Assembly (NCBI GenBank): GCA_022703645.1
Contig: JAKLDG010000001.1
Coordinates: forward strand, 338,814-402,813
Reading direction: 5' to 3'
Origin: Patescibacteria group bacterium
GTDB lineage: Bacteria > Patescibacteriota > JACPGU01
Length of the DNA stretch: 64,000 nt
The notes under the pieces are model-generated. The model was not told the origin of the DNA and searched no databases. It saw only the letters and a list, made by a program, of their open reading frames with translations. A program made the translations under genes and the position numbers. Below, piece after piece: positions 11,703-63,876 of the stretch (its first letter is position 1; each line of letters starts with the position of its first letter).

Positions 11703-12260
11703 TTATGGGCAAATAATCTCATTAATCTTCCATTGGTTATCTTGAAGGATCAACTCTAATTTTATTTTCCTGGATTTTATATAATTCAGATTCATTTCTA
11801 CTGTAGCTGCATCATTTTTAACAGTAATATCACCAAAAGCTACTGTGTCTGGCATCCCAACACCGCAAATAACGGGGTCTATTTTTTTATCAGACTCTTT
11901 TTGCTCAGCTACGTTTTTTTCGATTTTGGCAATTAAATCCGGAGTCAATGTGCCGCGATCTTTGTAGCTAACATCTGAAAATACATCGGTATTACCATGA
12001 ATATACCAGTTATAAAAACTATTTACTGCCACTTCCACAGTCATTTTCTTATCCTGCAGCATGGCAGCTTCTTGATTGGCTTTTTTTGTATTGTTTTTTG
12101 TGCTTGCCATACCTGCAATAGCTATGACCACCGCAGCAATAAACAATATCGCTGCTAGAGAAAACATAGATAAAAGTATATAGAACTTTTTATCCCGACC
12201 AAAAAGTCTTTTTATCTTTGGAAACATTTGAGTGGTTTTCTGAATAATTTGCTTTATCAT
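11703..12260 (-). CDS. membrane-anchored hypothetical protein
   Basis: N-terminal TM (YILLSMFSLAAILFIAAVVIAIAG) followed by a soluble domain. Confidence 0.5.
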   Translation of the reverse strand: MIKQIIQKTTQMFPKIKRLFGRDKKFYILLSMFSLAAILFIAAVVIAIAGMASTKNNTKKANQEAAMLQDKKMTVEVAVNSFYNWYIHGNTDVFSDVSYKDRGTLTPDLIAKIEKNVAEQKESDKKIDPVICGVGMPDTVAFGDITVKNDAATVEMNLNYIKSRKIKLELILQDNQWKINEIICP

Positions 12261-40479: not shown

Positions 40480-40665
40480 TTTGATTTTTTAAAAAACACG
40501 CAGAATATTCAGATTTAATAATTAAATAATAGTACAAATAAGAGTTTTTTTCAATGCCTTTTGCATTTTATTATTTATGCTATAATGAAAAAATAGATGT
40601 ATTTCTTAAAATATTATTTAACCAAGAAAAAATTTATGCCAGATTATTTGGTATGATTTTTTCTT

Positions 40666-40747
40666 AAAAGGAGGATTTTCACGAAAGCTTACGGAGAATA
40701 AAACTGAAATTTTTTTCTCAAAAGTGGGAGTGGAATTACGACGGGTG
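40666..40747 (+). promoter_or_regulatory. conserved leader motif (GATTTTTTCTTAAAAGGAGGATTTTCACGAAAGCT ... AAAGTGGGAGTGGAATTACGACGG) ending at the mscL start
   Basis: Near-identical over the first 37 nt to 59305-59340 (nusA) and related to 101-184. The GTG start at 40745 aligns with the ATGs of the other two copies. Confidence 0.5.
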
Positions 40748-46500: not shown

Positions 46501-49500
46501 ATGATTGTGGTAAAGAAAAAGAAAATACCTTTAAGACCGTTTTTAATCCTCTTAGTGTTAATAGCTGGGTTTACTTTGAGTTTGGGTTTAAAACCAAATG
46601 AAAAAATAAAAGCGGCTTATTCTAATCCTTGCAAGACAGCTGGCACGTATGCTGGTTATGTAGTTGACGCGAATCTTAATGTTATTATTCCGGCTTACAA
46701 TAATGCTGTGTTTGGTGACACTTTCTATGATAGTACCAGCAAAGAAATTCATTGTAAAAGCATAACGATAGAAACGGGAGCGACTTTAGATATATCGCCA
46801 AAAACTACCGGTGCAAGTAAAACAGGCGGCACAAATTATAGAAGATTGGTTCTTGATGGTGATTTGAATATCGCAAGCGGTGGAACGCTAAATCTATATG
46901 GCGGCAATATATATAATACCGGCGGACTCAATGGCACTGGGATAACAAATGATGGAAAAGGATATGGTATGAATGTTATGGTTGGTGGAAATGTTTTGGT
47001 TGAATCCGGCGGATGGATATCAGCTGATGGCAAAGGGTATGAACATAGTAAGGGGCCGGGAGCAGGTGTGGCTGAACCCGGTTCACAAGGCGCTGCATAT
47101 GGTGGGGCTGGTCCGGATGGAACCAATTGTTATGGGAAATATTACGGTTCGGTTTCTGACCCGATAGAACTCGGCAGCGGCAGTAGTTTGGGAGTAGGAG
47201 GCGGAGTAGTTGATATAACTGCCGCGGGAACAATATTAATTCGCGGCGTAGGCAAAATTACGGCAAACAGCATTGGAGAGGGATCGGGCGGTTCAGTAAG
47301 ACTCAGCGCCAATACTATTAGTAGTACAATTGACGGCGTAAATATACCTTCTATTACAGCAAATGGCGGTAGTGGGTCTTATTACAGTGGCGGCGGCAGA
47401 ATCGCGCTTTTTTATAATTCATCAAATTTTGGCGGTGATATCAAAGCTATTGCTAACGCCTATGGAGGAGCTGGCACTGTATTCAAGAAAAAAAATATCG
47501 AGGCTTATGGTGATTTAATTATTACAAATAATTATCAGGATCATACCGATAACCCTCCGGACTATACTCCATATGCATATACAAAAATTGGCAAAACAAA
47601 AATCGATTCTGGCACATATAAGAATATCACAGTTAATAAAAGAGCAAACGCTATTATTGAATCTAGTAATATAGTAAACATCAATGGTGGTACTTTTGAA
47701 GTAAATAATTCCAAACTTGAAAATAAAGGCACTTTAGCTTCACAGACTTCCGCAGAAAAATTTCTGGCGAAAAATACCGCTCGGATACTTAATAGCGGTA
47801 CAGGGTTATTTAGCCTGTCCGCGAACTCAAACGCTATATTTGACGGCATAGACACTTATTTTGAGAACCAAAATAATATTATCCAAAATTTCGCCAATTT
47901 AACTATCTCTAACGGGGCTGTCATGAGCCATGCCGTCAATGATGCTACCGGTGTGACAAATTGTCTTAGGAATTCAATTGATAATCCAGTTGGCGGCGCG
48001 ATCCCTCCTTGCGAATATAAGGATTGGGGTGATGGCTATGGGAAACATTGGAATCAAAAATATACCTTAAGGATAAATGCCACAAGTGTTAATATTGATA
48101 ACAAAAGTTCGATAGATGTTTCACAAAAGGGATTTCAAACATTACCTGGAACATCAGGTTTTGGGCCGGGAGGGTCAAGTACGGCTTACTCAATCGGTGG
48201 TTACGCGGGAGGTTCTTATGGTGGCAGAGGTGGTAACGATAATACTGGGGGAGTAAGCGCAGATATTTATGGCGACTCGGATGGAGACCTGAATAATCCA
48301 AATGATCTGGGAAGCAGCGGTGATACCGGCTATACTGCCGGAGGATTAGTAAGAATAACAGTTTTGGGCGATATTGTTAATAATGGCTCTATATTATCAA
48401 ATTCAGGTACGGTTTCAAATGGTTTTGCCGGTGGGTCAGGAGGAGGCATAAGATTGGATGCAGACCGGATTCTCGGAGCTGGAAAAATTTCTGCCAACGG
48501 CATGCCCGGAACGATAGATCTTGCGAAAGGCGGCGGAGGAGGCGGAAGGATCGCGATCACATACAAAACCACAAAAGATTTTTATGGTCCAATTACCGCT
48601 TATGGAGGGTCTACTGATGGGGGACCCGGTACGATACTTTTTGCAAACAATAGCTCGGGAGCCTTAATTGATAAAGAACTTGTTATTTCTAATTCAGTTT
48701 TAAACGACAATCCAACCAAAATAGGAGGCGGTACGTATAAAAATATTACCGTAAAGAATACCTCGCCAACTCTTACTGACCTGACTTTAGCCGCAATCGT
48801 TTCTGGACAATCCGTTGTCATGCAAGATGGTGGGAATTTTGAAGTTAACCAAACTAATTTAACTAATAGCGGAACTATTTCTTTATTAGCCGGAACGTCA
48901 AATTTAGTTATAAAGGGAAAATCAAATTTTATTAATATCGGACCTACCGCCTCTCCTGGCATTAACGCGAATAGTACTTCTAAAGTTATTTTGGACAATG
49001 CCAATTTTGAAAATAAGAATAATATTGAACAGAATTTTGGCAATCTTTATATCCAGAATGGAGCAATATTAACGCATACTCAAAATGATTACTTAACGGT
49101 AAATTGCGTGAATACTTCCTGTACCAACCAAGACCTGGGTGATGGCAATGGAATGCATTACAATCAGGCTTATACATTAAGAATACATGCAAACAATGCT
49201 TTAATTGATAAATTTAGCGCTATTAATGTTGATGGCAAGGGCTATGACATGGGTAGAGGACCGGGTAATAATGGGTCTGCTAATTCTGCCGGAAGTTATG
49301 GCGGAGCTGCGTCAAGCGGCGACAGTACCTATGGTTTAGCGGATAACCCTAATGATTTGGGCAGTGGAGGTTATTCCGGTAGTTATGGTGATAATACCGG
49401 CGGCGGTTTAGTAAGAGTTAGGGCAGACGGTAATATAACAGTTGATGGCTTTATTTCTTCGGATACAACATCTGCCGGATCTTTTGACGGCGCTTCAGGA

Positions 49501-52500
49501 GGCGGTATAAAATTAATAGCAAATAGTATTCTTGGCTCCGGTTCTATTTCCGCTAGTTCTAATTTGACAAGCGGGAATATTGGCGGAGGTGGCAGAATAT
49601 CTCTCATAGCTACGCAAAAAAATTACAGCGGCACCGTCTCTGTGAATAGAGGTGGAACTGGAGCGAATTACGGTACTATTTATGATTCTCTGGCTATCCC
49701 TACGACTTATGGTCCGAGCGCAACACCATTAACTTATAATACAAAATTAAGTAATAATACTCCATATATAAAAGCCGATAGTTCAGCAACAACGATAGGT
49801 GTTGATGAAGGCAATGCAGTTAGCACTGGATATACTCCAGATTCTGATACCTCACTTCTTTTGAAAATGGATAACTGGGGAGATGGTCTTATTTATGATT
49901 CTTCCGCAAAATCAATACCTGTTATTAAATATGGCACAACTTCCTTCTCTGATACTGTTTTGAAAACTGGAACGCATTCACTATTATTTAATGGTTCCAC
50001 AGGTCGTTTAATACCTGATGGTACTTTTACATCAAATTTCCAGTATGGCACCGGAGCTTTTACTATTGATACTTGGATTTATCCAAAATCTGTTACGACA
50101 CTTCAAACAATTTATTCTCAAAAAAATAGCGCGACACCAACAACTAATGCATCATCATTACAAATTACTACTACCGGTCAGCTAAAATATACTGAAAATG
50201 GAGTTTCTATTATTTCTCCTGTCAGTACTATAAAACTAGGCAGTGATGTCGGATGGCAACATGTTGCTTTAGTTAGAGATAATTTAGGGGTTGAAAGATT
50301 ATTTTATAATGGTTCCGTAGTAGGAACACAGTCGTCTACATACTCCAAATTCAGCGATGTCGGTATCGGATGTTTATACCAGTCTACTAATACATTATTT
50401 TATAATGGCTATATGGATGAGTTCCGTATCAGTAAAGGAGTGGCGCGCTGGACCTCTGATTTTATTCCATTATCTGATGATGGCAACTGGGAAAAATTAA
50501 ATTTGAGAGCAACAAGGACTAACCCTAGCTCCGATACTAAGCTTTTGCTTCATCTCGATGGAACAAATGGATCAACTACCTATACTGACAGTTCTCCTTC
50601 AAACCATACAATATTGCGTTACAACACACCAACAATTTCCACTAACACTAGTAAATTTGGCGGCGCGTCAGGCGCTTTCCCGAGAGTAACCTCTCCATAC
50701 TTTGATTATATTTATGCTAATGATAATGTTAATGATTGGACTTTTGGCGCGGGTGATTTTACGATAGATTTTTGGGCTAACTTTTCAGATAATGTCAGGC
50801 AAGGTGTTCTTGCCATCGGCTCCGGCGCTTATGCTCCAATTGCTTTTGAAGTAGTAAGCAACAATCTTAACGTCTACATGACTAGTAATGGTAGCAGTTG
50901 GGATATCGCTAGCGGTCAACCAGTTGGCCAAACATTTGGTCCGGTAACACCAGGCGTTTGGGTACATTATGCGCTAACAAGGAATGGAAATACTTTTTAT
51001 CTTTTTGTTAATGGTACTACTGTAAACTCTTTTATGTCATCATTAAGTTTATGGAATAATAGCGGCGCTTTATATATAGGGCAATATTTTGGGTCTGTTA
51101 CAGCCTTTAAGGGCTATCTGGATGAATTTAGAATTATAAAGGGAAGAGCGGCTTGGAGTAATAATTTTACTCCTTCTACAACTCCCTATGAAATTTATGA
51201 TGACCCGTCTTTCAATGGAACGGTAGATATTGGCATAATAGATAATCTTGCAGGTGAATATGTTTTTTCCGGCTGCAACGGAGCGAACTGTACTTTTTCA
51301 GATTCAAAAGTTACAGCGAGATTCATAAATGGTATTGCTAATTTAGCAGTAAAAGTAAAAGACAAAAGAGATGGGCAGATAAAGCATCACGGTTTTTCAG
51401 GGCTAAAAATTAACTCCGTTTCAAATGTATCTTATATAAATAATAATCAAATAACCGGAGCTATCGAAATTCAAGATAGAACCCCAGAAAGATCAATACC
51501 ATCAGGTCCTGCCCCCGCAGGAAGTATTACTAAAGGAACTGCTGGCGCTACTATTTTTCCAATGGGAGCCGGTTTTAGTATTATAAATAATTCCAAAGGA
51601 ACCAGTCAGAGCCAACAAGATTTGGGTGGTAATTTAGTGGTTCGAGGTCCATTAGCATCCGCGCCATATCGTCTTTACCTTGATAAAAACATAATGTATA
51701 AAAGAGGTGATTATTTGAATAGCGACGGAACTATTAGCAGCGTGGCAACAGATTATCAAGTGGTTTGTGTTAATACAGCGGACTATACCCAAACAAAAAT
51801 AAGATGTAATGATGATCTGAGCACCAGCGCTATTCCATCAGGATTGCGAAATTATGGTATATATACATTTAATAAAACTTATAATTTCTATACCCAGAAC
51901 GAAACCTCTAATTATTCAGCGCCTTCAATATCTCAAGTTCTTATACCAGCTAGCAACCCAACTGTGCCTGTTATTTCTCCTTTAACAATAACTCCGACTA
52001 ACGGAAAATTAAATCTCAGCTGGAATAATCCAATTGATAATATCGGGCAAACAAAAACTTTGATCGTTAGAGGTATCGATAGTATTCCTACTTTCGTTCC
52101 AAGTGATGGGACGGATTATAATACCTGGTCAAATACTACTGTAACCGGAGAAGAGATGATCTATGACAGCACTAATGTCGGGGCGGGAAGTGAAGTAAAA
52201 AACTTTGACGATGCCAATGTATTTTTTGGAACCAGATACTGCTATACAATCTATGCTCAATATATTGGTTATATTTATTCGGTAGGGACTTCTGCTTGCA
52301 GCACTCTAACATCAATTATTGATCCGCCAGTCAACCCAACTATCACGATTCAAGGAATGATGATAAATATCGGATGGACAGCGCCACCTTCCGGCAATCC
52401 TGATAATTACCTGATTGTTAGAAAAAAAGGCACAACAGAACCAAACTGGAATCCAACCGGGGAAACTGCTGACTATAATATTGGTGATACGGTTGGCGAT

Positions 52501-55500
52501 GGTGTTGTTGTCTGTAAAGGATTTTCATGCACTGATCAAAATGTAAATGTAAATACTTTGCCAACCCAGTATTATTATAAAATTTATGCTCAGTATGGAA
52601 CCGCGGCTCCCTTCAGTTATTCTGTCGGTTCAACGGCAGTAAGCGGAAATCCTAACCCGGAAAACCCCCAAAAGTTTGATAATACCAATGAAGCAACACC
52701 AAGTGTAACACTGGACAATCTATCAGGACCTTACACGCCTCTTAATACATTTAAGATTGCAAATTATCTTGTCTGGAAAGCAACAACTCCGGCTGATTGC
52801 TCAGGGGCTTGGACGCCAACCAATGGAGCTGACTATTCAGGAGTGCAAGGAACTGGAAATATCATTTACAAAAACCCAGCAGCGCCAATATCATATATTG
52901 ATACTGCAGTTACAAATGGCGTTGGTTATTGTTACAAAATCTTTGTCCAATATAATGGTGAAACAATCAATACTACTGATCTAATGTATTCTTCTGGATT
53001 AAGTCTTTGGACTCAACCGCCAAATCATAATCCAACAATTAGCGTAAATAGCATCACCCAAACGATCGGCACGGATAATGTGGTAATTAACTTTAATGTA
53101 AATGATATTGATCCATCTGATAATGGCAAGCTTTCTGTTGGCTTTGCTGTTACAAATCCGGTTTCAGGATGCAGTATTAGCACTTTAACCGGACCAATAA
53201 CTAACCTCGGTGTCGGAGCTCATAGCGTTACTTGGACCGCCACTACCACTAATGGAACCGCGGGGGATTGTCCAGGCGTAGAAATGTTAGCCGGTTCTGC
53301 TCAACTGACAGCCACTGTTTCCGATTTTATCGGAGCCACCGGTACCGCTAGTCCAACTTTCTCTCTTGACACCAAAGCTCCCATTGCAAGTTCCAGCCTT
53401 ATTTTGTCCTCCAAAAACAGCAACTCCATTACTGTCGCTACCGGAGCTACCGGGGCTACTGATGGAAACATAAAAACTACCGCTGCCTATAAAGTCTATT
53501 ACAAGCAAGGATCAACGGTAGACGAAGTAAGCGGTACGCAAATACTACCAAATATTAATAGTTATGTTGCGGGACAGATATTTACTGCTTCCTCGCTAAT
53601 AACTAACCAGCAATATTCATTTAATATCTGGGCTTATGATAACTATGGACATAAAACTGCTGCTACGGTATTAAATGTCAGCACAAAAGGAAAATCTGTT
53701 ACAGGATTTACAGCTATAGTTCAAGGTATGAGAGTCCATCTGAGTTGGGACGCAATGCTGCCGGCGCCAGATAAGCATCTGGTTATTCGTAAGAAAGGAA
53801 CATCCGCGTCTACTTGGACGCCAACAGATGGTATTGGAATATATGCTGCTGGCAACACGGTAGATGCAGATACGATAGTAGTTTACCATGGCACAGGCGT
53901 CACTCTGGATGATGATGCAGTTGATGGAGCAGCCTATACCTATACTATCTTTGCCAACTATTCTGGAAATCTATATTCAGAGGGGGTTTCAGCTCCATCG
54001 ATAACACCGAATGCTCTGAACGCGTCGTTATCTGCTCCTGCCTATATACCAAATGGATCAAATTATGATATCGCACTCAACTGGGTAGCCCCCACACCAA
54101 GTTACAGTTTACAAAAATATGTAGTAGTTAGAGAAGTTGGGTCTCCTACTTGTTTAATCGAATGGACGCCAACCAAGGATAATAACTATAATGCATTAGA
54201 TCCAACCGGCTTTACTAATGAAGAAATTATCTATTCCGGAACCGGAACCACTACTACTGATAATATGGGAGGAACGGGAGTTTCTTCTGGTACAAATGTT
54301 TGCTATAAGATCTTTACTCAATATCTGGGAGATGATTTAGCGGTTCCAACAAACTTAGTTTATTCCGCTGGAATTGCCGCTACCTATGTACCGCCAAATC
54401 TGCCTCCAGAGATAGAGATTGGTTCAGTCACAGCGCTACAAACTACCGGAACTGAAAATATTGTTATAGCTTACCGTGTTAGAGATTCCGACTCAACCAA
54501 TTTGAATATTACATTTAGCATGATTGATCCGGGAGGCTCCACTTGCCAAATGAATTTAACTGATAATTTGGCGGGGATTGATGGCACTTACTATACTCAT
54601 ACCGCTACTTGGAATGCAGGGCTGGCAGGAGAGTGCCCGGGATTTGAAGTAACAAATGCTGTTATCCAAGTAACTGCCAGCGATAGTCTTAATTCTGTTT
54701 CGCAAAACTCCGCTCCATTTCTGCTTGATACTCTATCCCCAAGGCTTCCAACTCCAACTGTTTCTAACTTTAATTTAACTAATTTTTCATCAACAGGAGA
54801 TAAGATATTCTTCAATCTAGGATCTAATTCAACAACTGATACTAATGCGCTTAACTACAAGATATACTATGCTTCTGGGGGAAGTGTTGATGAAACAGGA
54901 ATACTCATAACAGGAGCTCCTATAGCATTTACTCCTGGAGCTGCATATTCGGTAACCGGATTAACACCGGGACAAAACTATACATTTAATATTTGGGCTT
55001 ATGATAAATATGGGCATAAAACTTCTGCGACTTCCGTAACATATTCAACTATTGTGCCTGCTCCGGCAAGCTTCTCTGTAACTCCGCATGGAATGAGATT
55101 ATCACTTACTTGGACGGCTCCTGTCGGTGGAACCCCAGACTATTATCTGATAGTTAGAAAAGCTAATTCAGATCCAATAATAGCTCCCGCTAATGGTTCT
55201 ACATACAACCTGGGGGATATTTTGAGCGGGGGAATGGTAGTCTACAATTCAACCGGGACAAGCCTTGACGATGATAATATTGATGACGGTCCTTACTATT
55301 ACCGAATTTATGCGCATTATTCAAATGGCAATTTCTCACCAGCCTTGGCTGGCAATGCGATTGCAGTGGCGGAAGGACCAAATACATTCAGCGCAACCTC
55401 AAGCCCAGCGCCAGTAGTCACATACATAGACACTCCACCAACAAATAATTTCAGTTTCGAGAACTATCTTATTTGGAAGAAAGAACAACCTAGCTGTACT

Positions 55501-57534
55501 ACTGATGGCAATCTGGTAGACGGTACGGTATATAATTATCTTGATTCAGTAGATGGGGGAACGATTATTTATAAATCAAACATTGATCCTAATGGTATGT
55601 CTGATATCTCAACTACAATAACTGGCCATACTTACTGCTACAAGATGTTCGTAGAGTATAATGGAGAAACTACTAATACTATCTATTCTAATGAAATGTA
55701 CTTTCAAATCACTCCTCCAAATAATCCTCCGACTCTTTCCGCTCTTTCTGTTGTTCAAACAATAGGTAGTGACGATGTTGTAATCGGATTTACTATTAAT
55801 GATCCGGATGGAATTGACGCTGGCAATCTCTCAGTCGCTTTATCAATTGTTAACCCTCCAGAAGGATGCAGTATCGGTACAATATCTGGTTCTTTGACTG
55901 GTTTATCAAATGGTAGTTATTCGGTTACTTGGACTGATGCCGATACTACTTGCCCTGGGCTTGAATTATCTAATGCTGGTTTAGAGTTTATTGCTCACGA
56001 CCTGATAGATTATTCATCTGCGCAGATAAGCAGTTTTTTACTCGACACTAAAGCGCCTACACTAATAGAGGGGCTAACATATGACCCACCAACCGCAGAT
56101 ACTATTGTAGTACGCCTAAGCACCAATACATTCTTCTTAAATCCTTTGAGTGTTGATCAAAATCTAAAAGGAGGAGGAAATAGCTTTAAGATTTACTACA
56201 AACAAGACAGTACCGTTTCAGAATCCGATACACAATTAGCTGCCTTTGATAATTATATCTTAGGGCAAGACTATACGGCCACACCATTAGGATCTAATTC
56301 ACAATATTCATTTAATATCTGGGCTTATGATAACTATGGACATAAGACAGCATATACTGATCCAGTCAAGCCAACTACCAGCGGTCTCAACGGACCACCA
56401 GTAGTACAATATGTTGCTCAACCAGTCCAAGCTGCTGGTACTGGTAATATCAATTTCAGTTTTGAAGTAAAAGATCCAGACTCGGATGGTTTAACTATCA
56501 CATTCTCACTAATTAATAATCCAGTCGGTTGCAGTATCTCTGGCGTTACTGGGTTTACCAATCCTGTATCCTCCACCAGTACTTTTGCAACAATTATCTC
56601 CAGCTGGAATGCGAAATTAACTTGTGATGGAGCGGATCAGTCTGACCTCAAGATCAGAATTAGCGCGGATGATGGAAACGGACATACAGCAACTATTGAT
56701 TCAGATCCATTTACTATCGATACGAAAAATCCTGTCTCTCCAGGAAACCTATCATTCCCAGCAGGAACTACTTTTGCGAATCAGGTTAGTGTAAAGACAA
56801 ATACTATTTCCGGTAGCGATACTAATGCCGATGATTGGCATGTATATAGGGTTGATGGAAATACTTTCCCAACGGATCCATTCTCTCCTGCTCTAACTCC
56901 AATTAAATTATATGATCCTTATATACCAGATGACGTATTTATTGATTCGGGGTTAACGCCAGATTCTGATTATACTTATAATATCTGCCTGCATGATACT
57001 TTTATGAACTTTACCTGCGCAACATCGCAAACTATTCATACACCAGCTTCAATATTAAGCTTTAATATTCTTGGTATTGCCAGTGGAATATCGGTTGGAG
57101 TTGAAACAACTAATATCACTACTACTTCTACAACAATTCCTTTTGGCAGTACTACAGTAGGGGATACAAAGGTTGGAGCGCTTGATCTACAAGGCACAAC
57201 AAATCTGGTTAATGGATATACTATTGATATCAGACAAGACCAAGATTTAACATCAGGAGGCAACACTATTCCTGCCCTTACCTCTACTAACGCTAGTCCG
57301 CAAGTATGGCCACCAACTCCAATTAGTTCTTTCTTTGGATATTCATCAATCAATCTTTCCAGATTTTCAAATGGCGTTAATTGGGCAGGATTAACTTTGT
57401 CTGACCTACCGATAGTAACACAGATAAACGGGACTCATGATGATGATGTTTTATTCAAATTATCCACCAAGAGTCCTCAACCAGCAGGAACTTATCAAAA
57501 CACCATTACTTTCTCAATAATGGCGAATCCGTAG
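46501..57534 (+). CDS. giant surface/adhesin-like protein (3677 aa): signal-anchor, Gly-rich beta-helix-like repeats, two LamG (Laminin_G_3) domains, tandem Ig/FN3-like modules
   Basis: Single uninterrupted ORF. N-terminal TM; duplicated ~400-aa Gly-rich module; LamG motifs (LLLHLDGTNGSTTYTDSS ... DFTIDFWANF; AFTIDTWIYP); four ~120-aa modules plus three FN3-like modules ending ...NIWAYD.YGHKT. Confidence 0.7.
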   Translation: MIVVKKKKIPLRPFLILLVLIAGFTLSLGLKPNEKIKAAYSNPCKTAGTYAGYVVDANLNVIIPAYNNAVFGDTFYDSTSKEIHCKSITIETGATLDISPKTTGASKTGGTNYRRLVLDGDLNIASGGTLNLYGGNIYNTGGLNGTGITNDGKGYGMNVMVGGNVLVESGGWISADGKGYEHSKGPGAGVAEPGSQGAAYGGAGPDGTNCYGKYYGSVSDPIELGSGSSLGVGGGVVDITAAGTILIRGVGKITANSIGEGSGGSVRLSANTISSTIDGVNIPSITANGGSGSYYSGGGRIALFYNSSNFGGDIKAIANAYGGAGTVFKKKNIEAYGDLIITNNYQDHTDNPPDYTPYAYTKIGKTKIDSGTYKNITVNKRANAIIESSNIVNINGGTFEVNNSKLENKGTLASQTSAEKFLAKNTARILNSGTGLFSLSANSNAIFDGIDTYFENQNNIIQNFANLTISNGAVMSHAVNDATGVTNCLRNSIDNPVGGAIPPCEYKDWGDGYGKHWNQKYTLRINATSVNIDNKSSIDVSQKGFQTLPGTSGFGPGGSSTAYSIGGYAGGSYGGRGGNDNTGGVSADIYGDSDGDLNNPNDLGSSGDTGYTAGGLVRITVLGDIVNNGSILSNSGTVSNGFAGGSGGGIRLDADRILGAGKISANGMPGTIDLAKGGGGGGRIAITYKTTKDFYGPITAYGGSTDGGPGTILFANNSSGALIDKELVISNSVLNDNPTKIGGGTYKNITVKNTSPTLTDLTLAAIVSGQSVVMQDGGNFEVNQTNLTNSGTISLLAGTSNLVIKGKSNFINIGPTASPGINANSTSKVILDNANFENKNNIEQNFGNLYIQNGAILTHTQNDYLTVNCVNTSCTNQDLGDGNGMHYNQAYTLRIHANNALIDKFSAINVDGKGYDMGRGPGNNGSANSAGSYGGAASSGDSTYGLADNPNDLGSGGYSGSYGDNTGGGLVRVRADGNITVDGFISSDTTSAGSFDGASGGGIKLIANSILGSGSISASSNLTSGNIGGGGRISLIATQKNYSGTVSVNRGGTGANYGTIYDSLAIPTTYGPSATPLTYNTKLSNNTPYIKADSSATTIGVDEGNAVSTGYTPDSDTSLLLKMDNWGDGLIYDSSAKSIPVIKYGTTSFSDTVLKTGTHSLLFNGSTGRLIPDGTFTSNFQYGTGAFTIDTWIYPKSVTTLQTIYSQKNSATPTTNASSLQITTTGQLKYTENGVSIISPVSTIKLGSDVGWQHVALVRDNLGVERLFYNGSVVGTQSSTYSKFSDVGIGCLYQSTNTLFYNGYMDEFRISKGVARWTSDFIPLSDDGNWEKLNLRATRTNPSSDTKLLLHLDGTNGSTTYTDSSPSNHTILRYNTPTISTNTSKFGGASGAFPRVTSPYFDYIYANDNVNDWTFGAGDFTIDFWANFSDNVRQGVLAIGSGAYAPIAFEVVSNNLNVYMTSNGSSWDIASGQPVGQTFGPVTPGVWVHYALTRNGNTFYLFVNGTTVNSFMSSLSLWNNSGALYIGQYFGSVTAFKGYLDEFRIIKGRAAWSNNFTPSTTPYEIYDDPSFNGTVDIGIIDNLAGEYVFSGCNGANCTFSDSKVTARFINGIANLAVKVKDKRDGQIKHHGFSGLKINSVSNVSYINNNQITGAIEIQDRTPERSIPSGPAPAGSITKGTAGATIFPMGAGFSIINNSKGTSQSQQDLGGNLVVRGPLASAPYRLYLDKNIMYKRGDYLNSDGTISSVATDYQVVCVNTADYTQTKIRCNDDLSTSAIPSGLRNYGIYTFNKTYNFYTQNETSNYSAPSISQVLIPASNPTVPVISPLTITPTNGKLNLSWNNPIDNIGQTKTLIVRGIDSIPTFVPSDGTDYNTWSNTTVTGEEMIYDSTNVGAGSEVKNFDDANVFFGTRYCYTIYAQYIGYIYSVGTSACSTLTSIIDPPVNPTITIQGMMINIGWTAPPSGNPDNYLIVRKKGTTEPNWNPTGETADYNIGDTVGDGVVVCKGFSCTDQNVNVNTLPTQYYYKIYAQYGTAAPFSYSVGSTAVSGNPNPENPQKFDNTNEATPSVTLDNLSGPYTPLNTFKIANYLVWKATTPADCSGAWTPTNGADYSGVQGTGNIIYKNPAAPISYIDTAVTNGVGYCYKIFVQYNGETINTTDLMYSSGLSLWTQPPNHNPTISVNSITQTIGTDNVVINFNVNDIDPSDNGKLSVGFAVTNPVSGCSISTLTGPITNLGVGAHSVTWTATTTNGTAGDCPGVEMLAGSAQLTATVSDFIGATGTASPTFSLDTKAPIASSSLILSSKNSNSITVATGATGATDGNIKTTAAYKVYYKQGSTVDEVSGTQILPNINSYVAGQIFTASSLITNQQYSFNIWAYDNYGHKTAATVLNVSTKGKSVTGFTAIVQGMRVHLSWDAMLPAPDKHLVIRKKGTSASTWTPTDGIGIYAAGNTVDADTIVVYHGTGVTLDDDAVDGAAYTYTIFANYSGNLYSEGVSAPSITPNALNASLSAPAYIPNGSNYDIALNWVAPTPSYSLQKYVVVREVGSPTCLIEWTPTKDNNYNALDPTGFTNEEIIYSGTGTTTTDNMGGTGVSSGTNVCYKIFTQYLGDDLAVPTNLVYSAGIAATYVPPNLPPEIEIGSVTALQTTGTENIVIAYRVRDSDSTNLNITFSMIDPGGSTCQMNLTDNLAGIDGTYYTHTATWNAGLAGECPGFEVTNAVIQVTASDSLNSVSQNSAPFLLDTLSPRLPTPTVSNFNLTNFSSTGDKIFFNLGSNSTTDTNALNYKIYYASGGSVDETGILITGAPIAFTPGAAYSVTGLTPGQNYTFNIWAYDKYGHKTSATSVTYSTIVPAPASFSVTPHGMRLSLTWTAPVGGTPDYYLIVRKANSDPIIAPANGSTYNLGDILSGGMVVYNSTGTSLDDDNIDDGPYYYRIYAHYSNGNFSPALAGNAIAVAEGPNTFSATSSPAPVVTYIDTPPTNNFSFENYLIWKKEQPSCTTDGNLVDGTVYNYLDSVDGGTIIYKSNIDPNGMSDISTTITGHTYCYKMFVEYNGETTNTIYSNEMYFQITPPNNPPTLSALSVVQTIGSDDVVIGFTINDPDGIDAGNLSVALSIVNPPEGCSIGTISGSLTGLSNGSYSVTWTDADTTCPGLELSNAGLEFIAHDLIDYSSAQISSFLLDTKAPTLIEGLTYDPPTADTIVVRLSTNTFFLNPLSVDQNLKGGGNSFKIYYKQDSTVSESDTQLAAFDNYILGQDYTATPLGSNSQYSFNIWAYDNYGHKTAYTDPVKPTTSGLNGPPVVQYVAQPVQAAGTGNINFSFEVKDPDSDGLTITFSLINNPVGCSISGVTGFTNPVSSTSTFATIISSWNAKLTCDGADQSDLKIRISADDGNGHTATIDSDPFTIDTKNPVSPGNLSFPAGTTFANQVSVKTNTISGSDTNADDWHVYRVDGNTFPTDPFSPALTPIKLYDPYIPDDVFIDSGLTPDSDYTYNICLHDTFMNFTCATSQTIHTPASILSFNILGIASGISVGVETTNITTTSTTIPFGSTTVGDTKVGALDLQGTTNLVNGYTIDIRQDQDLTSGGNTIPALTSTNASPQVWPPTPISSFFGYSSINLSRFSNGVNWAGLTLSDLPIVTQINGTHDDDVLFKLSTKSPQPAGTYQNTITFSIMANP

Positions 57535-59179: not shown

Positions 59180-59310
59180 TTTGACAAGTAAATTTGGATG
59201 TTGTAAAATAGAAATATAATAGAGTAGAAATACTCTGTTTTTTTGTTTTTAAAATTAATACGAAGAAAAAATCTATACCAATAATTAATATACTATAATA
59301 GGATTTTTTC

Positions 59311-59396
59311 TTAAGAGGAGGAATTTTACGAAAGCTGGAGCAAACAAAATTTTTTAAATTTTGGATGCGAAAGTGAGAGTAAAATTGTGACGAATG
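59311..59396 (+). promoter_or_regulatory. conserved leader motif (GATTTTTTCTTAAGAGGAGGAATTTTACGAAAGCT ... AAAGTGAGAGTAAAATTGTGACGA-ATG) in front of nusA
   Basis: TATAAT at 59294-59299 places a likely transcription start at the conserved GATTTTTTC. Internal AT hairpin caaaattt/aaattttg. Matches 40666-40747 and 101-184. Confidence 0.5.
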
Positions 59397-60602
59397 AACG
59401 AAGAATTTATTTCCGCTCTCGAACAAATCGCTGAAGAGAAAAAAATTAGCAAAGAATCTATTCTGGAGGCTACTGAATCAGCCCTAGCGGCAGCATACCG
59501 TAAAGATTATGCAAAGCCGTCCCAGACAATCAGATGTAAAATCGACCCCGTAAAAGGTACTACAGAATTCTGGTTGGAGAAGAAGATTGTCGAAGAAGTT
59601 GCCGACGAAAACGCAGAAATATTGCTTGCTGACGCGCTAAAAGAAGACAAAGATGCGGTTATCGATGGTGTTATCAAATACCCGCTGCCAACCAAAGAAG
59701 ATTTTGGCAGAATAGCAGCGCAGACTGCAAAGCAGGTTATTATCCAGAAGCTTAAGGAGGTTGAGCGCGAAGTTGTATTTGATGAATACAAAACACTTGA
59801 AGGCAAACTTTTAAATGGAGTTGTCCAACAGATTGAAGGCGGAAATATTATTGTTGATTTGGGAAGAGCAAATGGCGTTATGTTTCCATCAGAACAAATC
59901 ACCGGTGAAAATTACCGGGTGGGACAAAGAATAAAAGTACTACTTCTACGAGTTGAACAAACAAACAAGGGTCCGCAAATTATGGTTAGCCGCGCGGCTG
60001 ATGATGTTATTAAATATTTATTTATGATTGAAGTTCCAGAAATTGAAGCTGGGTCAGTCGCTATAATGGGAATCGCAAGAGAAGCGGGGGTAAGAACAAA
60101 AATGTCAGTGCGAGCGCTTCAGGAAGGTGTTGACCCAGTTGGATCTTGCGTTGGACAACGTGGCACACGCGTACAAGCAGTTCTTGGTGAAATTGGCAAC
60201 GAAAAAATAGACATTGTGCTCTGGAATGAAGAACCGGAAACATATATTGCAAATGCATTATCTCCGGCCAAAATAGATAGTGTTAAATTAAATAAGAGAG
60301 CAAAAGAAGCTTTAGTTATTGTAAACCCAGACCAATTATCTTTAGCAATCGGTAAAAACGGACAAAACGTTCGCCTTGCCGCTAGATTAACTGATTGGAA
60401 AATAGATGTTATTGAAGTTGGTTCTGAGGCGGCAAAAAGTTTTAAAGAAGATAAAGATGAAGAACAAGAAAAGAAGAAAGTAAAAAAAGAAGAAAGTAAA
60501 AAGAAAAAGAAAAATATAAAGGAGGGAAAAGAGAAAGAACCGGAGAAAAATAAGAAAGAGAAAAAGTCTGCAACAAAGAAAAAAGAAACTGAGAAAAAAT
60601 AA
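59394..60602 (+). CDS. nusA: transcription termination/antitermination factor NusA
   Basis: N-terminal domain, S1 and tandem KH domains (GSCVGQRGTRVQAV ... ALSPA); Lys/Glu-rich C-terminal tail. Confidence 0.9.
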   Translation: MNEEFISALEQIAEEKKISKESILEATESALAAAYRKDYAKPSQTIRCKIDPVKGTTEFWLEKKIVEEVADENAEILLADALKEDKDAVIDGVIKYPLPTKEDFGRIAAQTAKQVIIQKLKEVEREVVFDEYKTLEGKLLNGVVQQIEGGNIIVDLGRANGVMFPSEQITGENYRVGQRIKVLLLRVEQTNKGPQIMVSRAADDVIKYLFMIEVPEIEAGSVAIMGIAREAGVRTKMSVRALQEGVDPVGSCVGQRGTRVQAVLGEIGNEKIDIVLWNEEPETYIANALSPAKIDSVKLNKRAKEALVIVNPDQLSLAIGKNGQNVRLAARLTDWKIDVIEVGSEAAKSFKEDKDEEQEKKKVKKEESKKKKKNIKEGKEKEPEKNKKEKKSATKKKETEKK

Positions 60603-61151: not shown

Positions 61152-61180
61152 TTGACAAATATTTTGCGTATTTATATAAT
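61152..61180 (+). promoter_or_regulatory. sigma70-like promoter (TTGACA - 17 nt - TATAAT) for clpC
   Basis: TTGACA 61152-61157, spacer 17 nt, TATAAT 61175-61180; immediately followed by CIRCE. Confidence 0.6.
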
Positions 61181-61184
61181 AGAG

Positions 61185-61211
61185 TTAGCACTCAACAGGA
61201 CAGAGTGCTAA
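61185..61211 (+). promoter_or_regulatory. CIRCE element (HrcA operator) TTAGCACTC-N9-GAGTGCTAA
   Basis: Perfect match to the CIRCE consensus inverted repeat with a 9-nt spacer, 4 nt downstream of the -10 box. Confidence 0.75.
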
Positions 61212-61221
61212 AGCACTCTAA

Positions 61222-61286
61222 ATAACCAATACCCAATTGAATATTGAAAAATTGGATATTGATTGGATATTGGTCATTGGATATTA
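61222..61286. repeat. CCAATA/TATTGG palindromic repeat array in the clpC 5' UTR
   Basis: ataaccaatacccaattgaatattgaaaaattggatattgattggatattggtcattggatatt; shares GGATATTGGTCATTGGA with 10.18 kb and 15.8 kb. Confidence 0.6.
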
Positions 61287-61362
61287 AACATTTTTATTCA
61301 AACAAAGTATTACTTAAATAAAATTTATATAGTAAGATTATAACTACAGGAGGATTAATTAT

Positions 61363-63876
61363 ATGAATATTTTTGGTTTTGATCGATTTAGCTCAAACGC
61401 TCGCAATATCCTTACTGAAGCGCAAGGCATCGCGGGAAACAACTCTGGAGTCATCGGAACAGAGCATATTCTGCTTGCAATATTAATGAACAAAAACTGT
61501 CTAGCAAATTCTATGCTGGAAAGTTTTGGCGTTGACCATGACAGAGCTGAACTCGCGATGAATTTTATGCCACAGTTTAATAATATCTATACGAATAAGA
61601 AAAGTGTCAATATTAATGAAGAAGTAAAAAAAGCTCTCGAAGCCGCGATTTTGACTGCAAAAAGATTTAACCATTTTTATCTTGGATCTGAACACTTGCT
61701 TTTGGGAATATTAGCAGACCCGAGCTTCAAAGCATTTCAAATCATTCAAAACATCGATGTTAATCCTGATAGCATAAAAAAACAATTAATTGAATTATTG
61801 CAAAATGCACCTCAACAGGACATTGAAATGATGGGTGAAACATCAGGAATGGGACCGGATAACCAGAATAAGAAAAAATCAATGCTCGCCCAATATTCAA
61901 TTGATCTGACAGCTGAAGCAGAAAATAATAGATTTGACCCTGTAATTGGTAGAACAACTGAAATCGAAAGAATAATTCATATACTTTCGCGCAGAACCAA
62001 GAACAATCCTGTGCTAATCGGCGATCCAGGCGTTGGAAAAACTGCTATTGTCGAAGGGTTAGCTTTGAAAATTATAAAAGGCGAAGTACCAATAAAACTA
62101 AAAAATAAAAAGATTTATTCGCTCGACTTGGGGAGTATGATAGCCGGTACGAAATTCCGCGGTGAATTTGAAGACCGCTTAAAAAAATTAATTAATGAAG
62201 TAGAGAAAGACCGCGATGCGATTCTTTTTATCGATGAAATTCACACGATAATTGGTGCTGGAGCAGCTGAGGGTTCAATGGATGCGAGTAATATGTTAAA
62301 GCCTGCTCTTTCTCGCGGTAAGATTACTTGCATTGGCGCGACTACGATTGAAGAATACCGCAAAAATATTGAAAAAGATGCGGCATTCGAAAGAAGATTT
62401 CAGCCTGTTGTAATTGAAGAACCGACAGTAGCTGACACCATTGAAATTTTGAAAGGTATTGCGCAAAACTACGAAGATTTTCACCAAGTTGTGATTGAAC
62501 CGGAAGCTGTCATGATCGCAGCAAAACTATCGCATAGATATATTGCCGATAGGTTCCTTCCTGATAAGGCAATTGACTTGATTGATGAAGCTGCGTCTGG
62601 TGTAGTAATAAAAGAAAAGATAGGGGAGAGCGCTGAAATTAAAAAGCTTGAAATAAAACTCAAAACAACTATCGAAGGGAAAAACAAAGCGATAGCTGAA
62701 CAAGCATACGAATTGGCTGCTCAGCTACGCGATCAAGAAAATTTCATAATAGAGGAAATTGAAAAAAAGCGAAAAGAAAAAAATGACATCCCAAGAGAAA
62801 AAAGAAAAATAGTTACTAAAGAAGATATTGCTAGGGTTGTAAATACTTGGACTGGAATTCCAGTTTCGAAATTAATTGAATCAGATTATGATAAATTTTC
62901 AAATATTGAAAATATCCTGAAAAAGAAAATTATCGGACAAGATGAAGCTATTGAAGTTATCGCCAAAGCGATAAAAAGAAGCCGTGCTGGAATTGGCAAT
63001 CCTAGAAGACCGATCGGATCTTTTATATTTCTTGGACCGACTGGGGTAGGAAAAACAGAATTGGCAAAAGTCTTGGCATCTGAAGTTTATGAGAGTGATA
63101 ATGCATTGATTAAGATTGATATGAGTGAATTTATGGAAAAGCATAATGTTAGCCGCCTTGTTGGCGCGCCGGCAGGTTACGTTGGTTATGAAGATGGCGG
63201 AAAGCTGACTGAAGCTGTGCGCAAAAAACCATATTCAATAATTCTTTTTGATGAAATCGAGAAAGCGCATCCGGAAGTTTTCAATCTTTTATTGCAAATT
63301 CTGGAAGATGGGGTTCTAACGGATGCTAAAGGAAGAAAGGTTGATTTTCGTAATACAATAATAATTATGACTTCGAATATTGGCGCGAATGAGCTAACAC
63401 GTTCCGCCGCGCTTGGATTTAAGATTGAAGATAATGATTCCGTAGAGATACAAAATCTTGCGTCTAACAATACCGATTATGAGAAAATGAAAGACATTGT
63501 TCTTGAACAGGTAAAGAGAAAATTTAATCCAGAGTTCCTAAATCGTATTGATAAAGTCGTTGTTTTTAAACCTCTTGGTAAAAAAGAGATCGCAAAAATT
63601 GTTGAAATAAATCTTGCTGAGTTAAAGTTACGATTGAAAAACGAAAAGGGAATAACTCTTGAAATCACAAAAAAAGCGATTGATTGGATCTCAAAAAACG
63701 GTTTTGATGCGGAATTTGGCGCGCGTCCAATCAGACGCTTGATCGAAAATGAAGTCGAAAATCAAATAGCAGAAAAAATCGTGAGTGGCGAGATAGAGGA
63801 GGGAGAGAAGGTTTCTATGGATCTGAAAAACGATAAAATAGTTTTTGTAGAAAAGAAAGTTTCGGTTCGTAAATAA
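61363..63876 (+). CDS. clpC: ATP-dependent Clp protease ATP-binding subunit ClpC (class III heat-shock AAA+ chaperone)
   Basis: Two Clp_N repeats; two AAA+ modules ([15 protein letters not shown]; [17 protein letters not shown]); short linker between D1 and D2 (ClpC-like rather than ClpB). Confidence 0.85.

Follow-up and report, generated by a model that had tools for sequence, protein, structure and literature searches.

Three intergenic regions in a stretch of 64,000 nucleotides from a Patescibacteria group bacterium (GenBank assembly GCA_022703645.1, contig JAKLDG010000001.1, positions 338,814 to 402,813 of the forward strand; hereafter the window) carry copies of a structured module of about 125–135 nt that reaches to within 2 nt of the start codons of three unrelated genes, nusA, mscL and a gene for a membrane protein. 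The module is a new RNA family that is supported by covariation and absent from Rfam 15, and it is specific to a subclade of the Candidate Phyla Radiation (CPR)/Patescibacteria. The reading that we prefer, tentatively and from the sequences, is that of a portable leader and intercistronic module in which a conserved AGGAG may act as the Shine-Dalgarno sequence (SD) of a split ribosome-binding site bridged by a long hairpin (H2), while an upstream hairpin (H1) would insulate or protect the leader and a shared factor would recognise the GA-rich rod of H2.

Each of the three window copies has the same order of parts, namely H1, A(A/G)AGGAG, the long irregular hairpin H2, GACG, 0–2 nt and the start codon. 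Copy C occupies positions 59263–59393 and is followed by the ATG of nusA at 59394. Its H1 (59263–59312, forward strand, as are all features of the three copies) was obtained from RNAalifold and minimum free energy (MFE) folds and pairs the arms AAGAAAAAATC (59263–59273) and GATTTTTTCTT (59302–59312). The AGGAGG at 59316–59321 is SD-like, and its GGA(G) also stands opposite GAC at the base of H2, as judged from the invariant AGGAG column and a register test. H2 (59317–59391) begins with this base (GGA 59317–59319 opposite GAC 59389–59391) and continues through helix P1 (59322–59329 with 59379–59386), internal loop 1 (GAAA opposite GAGA), helix P2 (GCT 59334–59336 with AGT 59372–59374) and internal loop 2 (GGA opposite GAA) to a variable tip hairpin, P3 (59340–59368), with an MFE of −21.6 kcal/mol (z = −3.1). 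GACG, one A and the ATG fill 59389–59396, and the nusA gene (59394–60602) encodes the Pfam NusA_N, KH and S1 domains. Copy B (40624–40744) precedes mscL, which starts with GTG at 40745 and has the Pfam MscL domain. Its H1 (40624–40665) has the arms AAGAAAAAATT and GATTTTTTCTT, and 40669–40747 holds AGGAGG (40669–40674), H2 (40670–40742), GACG (40740–40743), a G and the start codon. Copy A (59–181) precedes a gene assigned by Pfam to the DUF5652 membrane proteins (ATG at 182). Its H1 (59–100) has the arms CAAAGGAATC and GATTTCTTTG, which differ by compensatory changes from those of copies B and C, and 104–184 holds AGGAG (104–108), H2 (105–178; MFE −27.5 kcal/mol, z = −4.6), GACG (176–179), CC and ATG (182–184).

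A preliminary description of this DNA had reported that the three regions share common blocks. All of the described blocks are present, and a pattern that joins the 5' and 3' blocks (AGGAGRWWTT..CGAAR...AAAGT..G...GACG) has exactly three matches in the 64-kb window and none in 100 shuffles. Alignment of the three copies extends the similarity about 45 nt further in the 5' direction; the leader as first described is thus real, but it covers only the 3' two-thirds of the unit. The three copies score 90–106 bits against the covariance model (E from 1e-17 to 1e-20). A fourth window copy was not found, as the rest of the 64-kb window stayed at noise level with the filters of the covariance model off, and the matches on the reverse strand of the window were palindrome echoes rather than copies.

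Further copies were sought in the window, in nusA-orthologue loci and in metagenome contigs fetched by a pattern consisting of the H1 3' arm and GGAG only. The first covariance model (R1) was built from five copies and was rebuilt from 32 copies (R2). Counts that rest on the metagenome scan are lower bounds among the matches listed. Overall, at least about 34 distinct copies scoring 31–130 bits occur in the window and in related Patescibacteria contigs. Among the matches listed there are 27 full modules at 61 bits or more, truncated copies at 54–76 bits and partial forms at 31–66 bits. The preliminary description had named a lack of additional copies elsewhere as grounds against it; the covariance-model search that it proposed recovered at least about 31 in relatives. 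The sole match to the strict two-block pattern among genome contigs, in a locus (L001) of a Desulfobacterales metagenome-assembled genome, is a chance match that the covariance model does not recognise. Viral contigs gave 37 matches to the H1 pattern, none with the fold, and no match to the H2 pattern; they indicate no phage link and serve as a negative control for the pattern. At the gathering threshold, Rfam 15 had no matches on the window and only tRNA and large-subunit rRNA in 17 loci of relatives, and at E ≤ 10 it gave nothing meaningful over the module in the two module regions searched. We found no description of such a module in the literature on CPR/Patescibacteria.

The fold is supported by covariation throughout. 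In the 32-sequence alignment, whose fitting to the model somewhat inflates the pairing, 90.7% of cells are standard pairs, as against 34–55% when the partners are slid by 1–3 columns. Compensatory double changes occur in 29 of the 38 pairs, none of 500 shuffles reaches any observed measure, and the compensatory variants are still plain in the raw sequences. For H1 these include CAAAGGAAUC/GAUUUCUUUG, AAGAGAAAAUC/GAUUUUCUCUU, AACAGAAAAUU/AAUUUUCUGUU and AAGUAAAAAUC/GAUUUUUACUU, and for P1 AAUUUUAC/GUAAAAUU, AAAUAUCGC/GUGAUAUUU and GCAGUU/AACUGC. The H1 arms pair in 96.4% of cells across the 32 copies, with compensatory changes at seven pairs, and P1, P2 and P3 of H2 each show covariation. In addition, G·U exceeds A·C in the predicted pairs (69 versus 18), which places the working structure in the sense strand and hence in the transcript. 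Together with the further copies, the covariation bears out the proposal that the leaders of these unrelated genes share a structured cis element that is not due to chance.

H1 is a 12-bp A/U-rich stem with a loop of 18–23 nt in the general scheme of the module and of 18–40 nt across copies, in which UAUACC...UAUAGUAG or AUCAAUAG is conserved. H2 is rod-shaped, comprises about 30 pairs and has three purine-rich motifs of the tandem G·A type. The variable hairpin noticed earlier exists but is merely the tip (P3) of H2, which fills the whole interval from AGGAG to GACG, and what had been taken for two separate conserved blocks are the 5' and 3' strands of its lower helices (P1 and P2) with the internal loops. 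A register test places the 5' GGA of AGGAG exactly opposite the 3' GAC of GACG in nearly every full copy. The spacers of 0–2 nt between this base motif and P1 are equal on both sides, and in copies of the tRNA type, described below, Watson-Crick pairs follow the GGA/GAC register directly. The base of H2 is thus a stack of A·G, G-C, G·A, A·G and G-Y under P1. The combination of a Watson-Crick pair with tandem G·A/A·G recurs in internal loop 1, where 5' CGA(A) stands opposite 3' (N)GAG, and a motif of the same type in internal loop 2, where GGA or GUA stands opposite GAA or GUA. Two known classes of motif have been considered for this rod and rejected. A kink-turn (a site for L7Ae, YbxF or YlxQ) would share the tandem G·A, but in the alignments the loops are symmetric (3x3, 4x4, 5x5) and lack the 3-nt bulge. 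A hairpin-type or other self-cleaving ribozyme does not fit a rod with loops only 3–6 bp apart, no conserved N*GUC-type site and no Rfam match.

The position of AGGAG relative to the start codon is central to the preferred reading of a split ribosome-binding site. In full copies AGGAG lies 71–86 nt 5' of the start and the span from GGA to GAC is 62–77 nt, which is beyond the limit of about 15 nt for an SD in linear sequence, and the AGGAGG had at first been judged too far away to be the ribosome-binding site. That judgement is not supported, because the intervening 62–77 nt form one covarying hairpin whose base puts AGGAG 5–8 nt from the start: with H2 looped out, the spacing consists of 1–2 nt, GACG and 0–2 nt. 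The start codon lies 0–2 nt past GAC(G/A) in all mRNA copies but one, with no other SD near the start. Orthologous nusA loci without the hairpin also use the same AGGAGG at 4–5 nt. The nusA loci L004 (79% NusA identity) and L007 (74%) have the module with differing stem sequences. H2 is missing from the nusA leaders of L005 (80% NusA identity), which reads ...TTTAGGAGGACGAATG, i.e. AGGAGG-ACGA-ATG, and L006 (71%), which reads ...AGGAGGATATCATG, i.e. AGGAGG-ATATC-ATG. The L005 leader equals the window sequence minus H2, with AGGAG, GACGA and ATG in direct succession. At hisS, L004 has H1, AGAGGGGAC, TAT and ATG without H2, and L007 has the full module; an H2-deleted remnant, AGGAGAAAGCUCGGACGC-AUG, stands in front of the L17 gene in L030. 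Window genes that have an SD mostly carry it 8–9 nt from the start.

Split translation initiation regions are known from phage T4, where looping out a hairpin reduces the spacing from 22 to 5 nt in gene 38 and from 27 to 11 nt in gene 25 (PMC3014915; see also PMC7297116). As in the module, a stable hairpin in T4 genes 38 and 25 and in the thrS operator of Escherichia coli separates the SD from the start codon and restores functional spacing, and the arrangement is present in close relatives and absent from more distant ones (PMC3014915, PMC7297116). The module differs in several respects. H2, at 62–77 nt, is about three times longer than the T4 hairpins (about 16–20 nt), it has three conserved tandem G·A motifs, and the SD is itself part of the helix base. 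Furthermore, the module is a multi-copy family in front of dozens of unrelated genes and tRNAs.

Several observations weigh against a split ribosome-binding site. Only about 15 of the 49 long open reading frames (ORFs) of the window have GGAG or GAGG 4–12 nt before a candidate start, so that about 70% are without a recognisable SD; initiation independent of an SD seems to be common in this genome, and the genes behind the module might not need one. At least four copies that precede tRNA genes keep AGGAG, so its conservation needs no translation. AGGAG and GACG are invariant across copies, even where no protein is made, because both pair at the base of H2, and pairing with YGACG alone can account for all five nucleotides of AGGAG. 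In L103 a module of the tRNA type is followed by a second, canonical SD for the protein downstream. With the tRNA copies, this argues that initiation would not be the sole role of the module. Finally, a rod of 65–70 nt between the SD and the AUG far exceeds any proven split translation initiation region.

The genes that follow the module are drawn largely from the translation apparatus. Among the matches listed, 12 ribosomal-protein genes follow it, encoding S19, S3, S14 (two copies), S8, L6, S13, S4, S7, S18, L11 and L32. Other genes of translation and transcription behind the module encode EF-P, RpoD, NusA and HisRS, and the remainder encode CTP synthase, a peptidyl-prolyl isomerase (PPIase), MscL, the DUF5652 protein, a TrmB-like regulator and unknown proteins. 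Genes for tRNAs follow a minimum of four copies and probably one more; the mature tRNA begins 1–3 nt past GACG. A module precedes tRNA-Lys in L092 and tRNA-Thr, then tRNA-Tyr, in L008; in L119 modules precede tRNA-Ile and tRNA-Ala inside the rRNA spacer upstream of 23S, and in L043 the probable tRNA is cut by the end of the locus. These copies retain AAAAGGAGC. In L103 a promoter is followed by a module whose H2 is 87% identical to that of the tRNA-Ala copy, and the second SD lies after it in GACGC-AAGGAGGG-UAUUU-UUG, in front of a membrane-protein gene. The S10/spc operon in L027 has modules between its cistrons, in the order L2, module, S19; L22, module, S3; and L5, AGGAG with H2, S14. Neighbouring cistrons of this operon are separated by short AT-rich spacers, often without an SD.

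This context also suits a generic cassette for RNA stability or processing. H1 and H2 would in this case stabilise 5' ends or offer sites to an endonuclease, RNase III-like or other, so that polycistronic, rRNA-spacer and tRNA precursors are cut into segments whose new 5' ends are protected. AGGAG itself would be purely structural or would resemble a STAB-SD, at which 30S binding blocks a 5'-3' exonuclease, and translation would be SD-independent, possibly from a very short leader cleaved near GACG. We regard such a cassette as a real possibility that nevertheless falls short of probable. It would account for modules in the rRNA spacer, directly before tRNA 5' ends and between S10/spc cistrons, for the start of H1 5–20 nt after the -10 box in stand-alone copies, for the separate SD in L103 and for the lack of an SD in most genes of this genome, and the H2 rod of about 30 pairs with internal loops resembles RNase III substrates. 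Two-hairpin leaders of this size have a precedent in the 133-nt ompA 5' untranslated region, whose 5'-terminal hairpins stabilise the mRNA. Precedents for the two proposed activities are the STAB-SD with RNase J1 (PMC4113751) and the Correia elements that are bound and cleaved by RNase III (PMC2649163). The STAB-SD of cry3A likewise combines an SD-like sequence with hairpins near the 5' end of a long leader, and in L103 and the tRNA copies AGGAG is, as there, not an initiating SD (PMC4113751). Unlike cry3A, most copies of the module have no other SD and adjoin the AUG, and the module is a family with a conserved fold. Against a cassette of this kind stand the orthologous sites without H2 that keep AGGAG at the canonical SD distance and the mRNA-type copies with AGGAG(A/G), a good SD. 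The mscL start codon is GTG, which is poor for leaderless initiation, and the distance from GACG to the start varies by 0–3 nt, so that ruler-type cleavage would give no exact ends.

Under the preferred reading, the module in mRNAs would be a translation initiation region in which AGGAG is the working SD and H2 a structured element inserted behind it, before the start codon; the base of H2 would bring SD and start codon to an effective 5–8 nt. H1, found at or close to the 5' terminus when the transcript is stand-alone and, in operons, between cistrons, would insulate or protect the leader. H2, and possibly H1, may also be recognised by a common trans-acting factor, whether a protein, an RNase or the ribosome. 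Such a factor is suggested by the weak G-C plus G·A/A·G pairing of AGGAG with GACG, by the conserved internal loops and by the tRNA and mostly translation-machinery context. The conserved internal loops, the conserved H1 loop and the association with tRNAs point either to a common factor or to a role in processing or stability, as a passive spacer would need none of them; the module would then be a shared post-transcriptional signal for expression or processing. A stronger form of this proposal, which we regard as speculative and rather doubtful, is that a single dedicated factor acting in trans, either an RNA-binding protein or an RNase, recognises H2 by its periodic tandem G·A motifs and H1 by its conserved loop, and thereby co-ordinately controls or matures the RNAs of the translation apparatus in these ultra-small bacteria. 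Its targets would be ribosomal-protein cistrons, tRNAs inside and outside the rRNA operon, EF-P, NusA, RpoD and an aminoacyl-tRNA synthetase, and the module would have spread between genes by copying. If true, this would give bacteria an equivalent of the eukaryotic 5'TOP regulon, or else amount to a "5'-end cassette" of universal use in mRNAs and tRNAs.

Another reading that was considered is a sensor resembling a riboswitch, or an operator for a single protein as in classical ribosomal-protein leaders; a ligand or protein bound at the GA-rich loops would hold the AGGAG/GACG base closed and so repress initiation. The conserved purine-rich internal loops, the weakly paired SD beside the start codon and the coherent gene set, mainly of the translation apparatus, are consistent with it. 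Structured RNAs directly 5' of ribosomal-protein cistrons and overlapping the ribosome-binding site are also the hallmark of ribosomal-protein leaders; those, however, are one specific mimic per operon, whereas here one fold precedes at least 11 different ribosomal-protein genes, tRNAs and others and matches no Rfam leader. The rod has no junction or pseudoknot pocket and no K-turn, copies also precede tRNAs, mscL, the PPIase and CTP synthase, close relatives are without the module, which would be odd for a core regulon, and there was no Rfam match at E ≤ 10. We therefore hold a sensor or single-protein operator to be quite improbable. The riboswitch-like element suggested in the preliminary description becomes unlikely on the same grounds of rod-like shape and diverse downstream genes, including tRNAs; another of its suggestions, a protein-binding leader, remains viable.

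The preliminary description had also placed a transcription start at GATTTTTTC, just after a -10-like hexamer. The hexamer (TATAAT-like at 59293–59298 in copy C) sits in the AT-rich loop of H1, and GATTTTTTC forms the 3' arm of H1 and is paired, with compensatory changes, to AAGAAAAAATC further upstream. Good sigma-70-type promoters lie upstream of H1 in stand-alone copies and differ from copy to copy, and several copies are intercistronic inside ribosomal-protein operons and have no promoter. For tRNA-Lys, tRNA-Ala, rpoD and L103 the -10 boxes end 5–20 nt before H1. At nusA the promoter TTGACA-17-TAAAAT precedes the module in three genomes; the window sequence at 59181–59209 matches it at 11 of 12 positions, and the module of copy C is thus transcribed. 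An extended -10 promoter-like TGcTATAAT (40578–40586, forward strand) precedes H1 of copy B by about 40 nt. Putative mobile promoters, a form of promoter and 5'-region reuse, also show highly similar upstream regions before unrelated genes within and between genomes (PMC3575422), but in the module the shared part is a transcribed structured RNA and the upstream promoters differ between copies.

In keeping with this, it is very improbable that the element is a DNA promoter (TTTATA/TCTATA ... TAGRAT) with a leader starting at GATTTTTTC, or that AGGAG drives a small upstream ORF. TTTATA-16/17-TAGAAT does fit sigma-70 spacing in six copies, and an ATG lies 4–10 nt past AGGAG in 7 of 35 copies. The two "promoter halves", however, are the covarying arms of a hairpin, the implied spacer ranges over 13–35 nt, better promoters lie upstream, and copies internal to operons need none. 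Neither start codon, frame nor peptide is conserved after AGGAG, where the sequence lies inside P1 and covaries as RNA. A promoter inside H1 has accordingly been rejected as a general feature, given the variable spacing, the covarying arms and the promoters upstream. The same holds for an upstream ORF starting at ACG or ATG past AGGAG; TTG is found at +4 inside P1 in 12 of 35 copies, and no frame or length is conserved. Leaderless transcription of the tRNAs and mRNAs with the 3' strand of P1 as a -10 box, in the manner of Nanoarchaeum, was also dismissed because the hexamers are inconsistent and the region covaries as RNA.

The nusA promoter in the window is followed by a hairpin, AGAGTA/TACTCT, with a T-run (59221–59246; promoter and hairpin together 59181–59246, forward strand). 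The promoter, hairpin and T-run are clear in eight of nine nusA orthologue loci (the window, L004–L007 and L160–L162), including those without the module; in L163 only TTGACA is present, and a hairpin with a T-run is not evident in the 260 nt read. The arrangement has the look of a terminator or attenuator in the leader, through which NusA might regulate its own synthesis.

The distribution of the module is patchy. The window genome has three copies in 64 kb, L004 three in 21 kb, L007 two and L006 one. The covariance-model scan detected none in the whole of L005 (21 kb), L160 (82% NusA identity), L161, L162 and L163, about 95 kb in total. Forms with H1 only occur at hisS in L004, at 11720 in L116 and in L063, and forms with H2 only before S4 in L030 and S14 in L027. 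The form in L116 is an orphan H1 with AGGAGG (11720–11796); next comes a small hairpin (GGAAU-UCU-AUUCC) in which the SD pairs with UUCCU. A full module before rpmF (L32) lies some 30 nt downstream of this form, so that a partial and a full module stand in tandem with no ORF between. Just outside the window, 17 nt of the hisS start region of the same genome (L002, 16290–16330), AACAAGAAAAAATTTATGCC, are identical to the 5' arm and first loop positions of the copy B H1 (40624–40640), although the ATG here starts hisS; the likeness may be fortuitous or the remnant of a module.

Some unlinked paralogues are nearly identical. The H2s of S3 and L11 share 97% identity, the H1s of nusA and the PPIase gene in L004 are 100% identical, as are those of rpoD and an unknown gene, and orthologous nusA H2s are only about 70–78% identical. 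Paralogues closer than orthologues imply that copies are still being copied or are homogenised by gene conversion. All copies are nevertheless sense-oriented, and a start codon or tRNA 5' end always follows their 3' end after 0–3 nt. The unit as a whole has no terminal inverted repeats, as its ends, AAAGAAAAAATC ... GGACG, are not inverted and only the H1 arms are, and no target-site duplication was found when filled nusA sites (window, L004, L007) were compared with empty ones (L005, L160).

Such a pattern raises the question of a selfish or neutral dispersed repeat, of the kind of miniature inverted-repeat transposable elements, repetitive extragenic palindromes or BOX, that colonised 5' leaders and is kept by copying or gene conversion with little function of its own. 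In favour of it are the several copies per 20 kb in some genomes as against zero in L005 (21 kb) and in four close relatives (75 kb), the varying presence at orthologous sites, the modular parts and deletion remnants, and the near-identical unlinked paralogues. The BOX repeat has a modular A-B-C organisation, and the module is modular likewise. Known bacterial repeat families of 100–200 bp also form long stem-loops in transcripts (PMC2229807). Correia/CREE elements of Neisseria, enterobacterial ERIC and pneumococcal BOX resemble the module in their size of about 100–150 nt, their many copies per genome, their patchiness between strains and their long stem-loops in transcripts, which can alter the stability or expression of neighbouring genes (PMC2649163, PMC2229807). 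The module differs from them in that the whole unit lacks terminal inverted repeats and a TA target duplication, in its strictly sense orientation and fixed 3' end, in carrying an SD and in its strong covariation. A repeat without function is in our view unlikely, since every copy is in sense and adjoins a start codon or tRNA 5' end, neither whole-unit inverted repeats nor a duplication at the nusA sites are present, and the RNA fold has been under selection, as judged from the compensatory changes and the bias towards G·U. The downstream genes are also strongly enriched for translation machinery, and viral contigs have no copies.

If the reading of AGGAG as the SD of a split ribosome-binding site is true, the module would be the first cellular multi-gene example of such a site and the first RNA fold common to the leaders of many ribosomal-protein cistrons, other housekeeping genes and tRNAs. 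To our knowledge, CPR/Patescibacteria are uncultured and very few of their regulators are known. A portable RNA module of this kind would be one of the few handles on the organisation of their gene expression, including the translation and processing of polycistronic ribosomal-protein and rRNA/tRNA transcripts. Supported as it is by covariation, the family is also a clean target for structure probing, pull-down of proteins and metatranscriptomic mapping of 5' ends, and it illustrates that a regulatory 5' region can propagate within a genome and yet keep a precise position. Even as a stabiliser or a domesticated repeat it would be a well-defined RNA family absent from Rfam 15.

Other features were observed in the window and in the related loci. 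A perfect sigma-70 promoter, TTGACA-17-TATAAT (61152–61180), lies upstream of clpB (61363–63876) and is followed by a perfect CIRCE operator, TTAGCACTC-N9-GAGTGCTAA (61185–61211), which on sequence grounds implies HrcA-type heat-shock control in this CPR genome. Short AT-rich words repeated 3–5 times in a stuttering manner (for example TTGGATATTG, ATTTGACATT and AATACTATAATAC) occur in intergenic spacers of the window (61225–61290), L002 (17720–17800), L103 (upstream of the module) and L027 (351–545 and 2255–2380). In L119 a second copy of the tRNA-Ile 3' end (GAGTCCTCCCACGCCCATTT) occurs about 145 nt downstream of the first (281–304 and 448–467), and a GC-rich insert separates the two, which suggests an insertion at the tRNA-Ile 3' end, and the rRNA operon spacer of this locus also holds a small membrane-protein ORF (478–720). 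Finally, positions 46501–57534 of the window form a single ORF of 3677 amino acids with a Laminin_G_3 domain. It resembles the giant surface proteins that occur in other CPR genomes.

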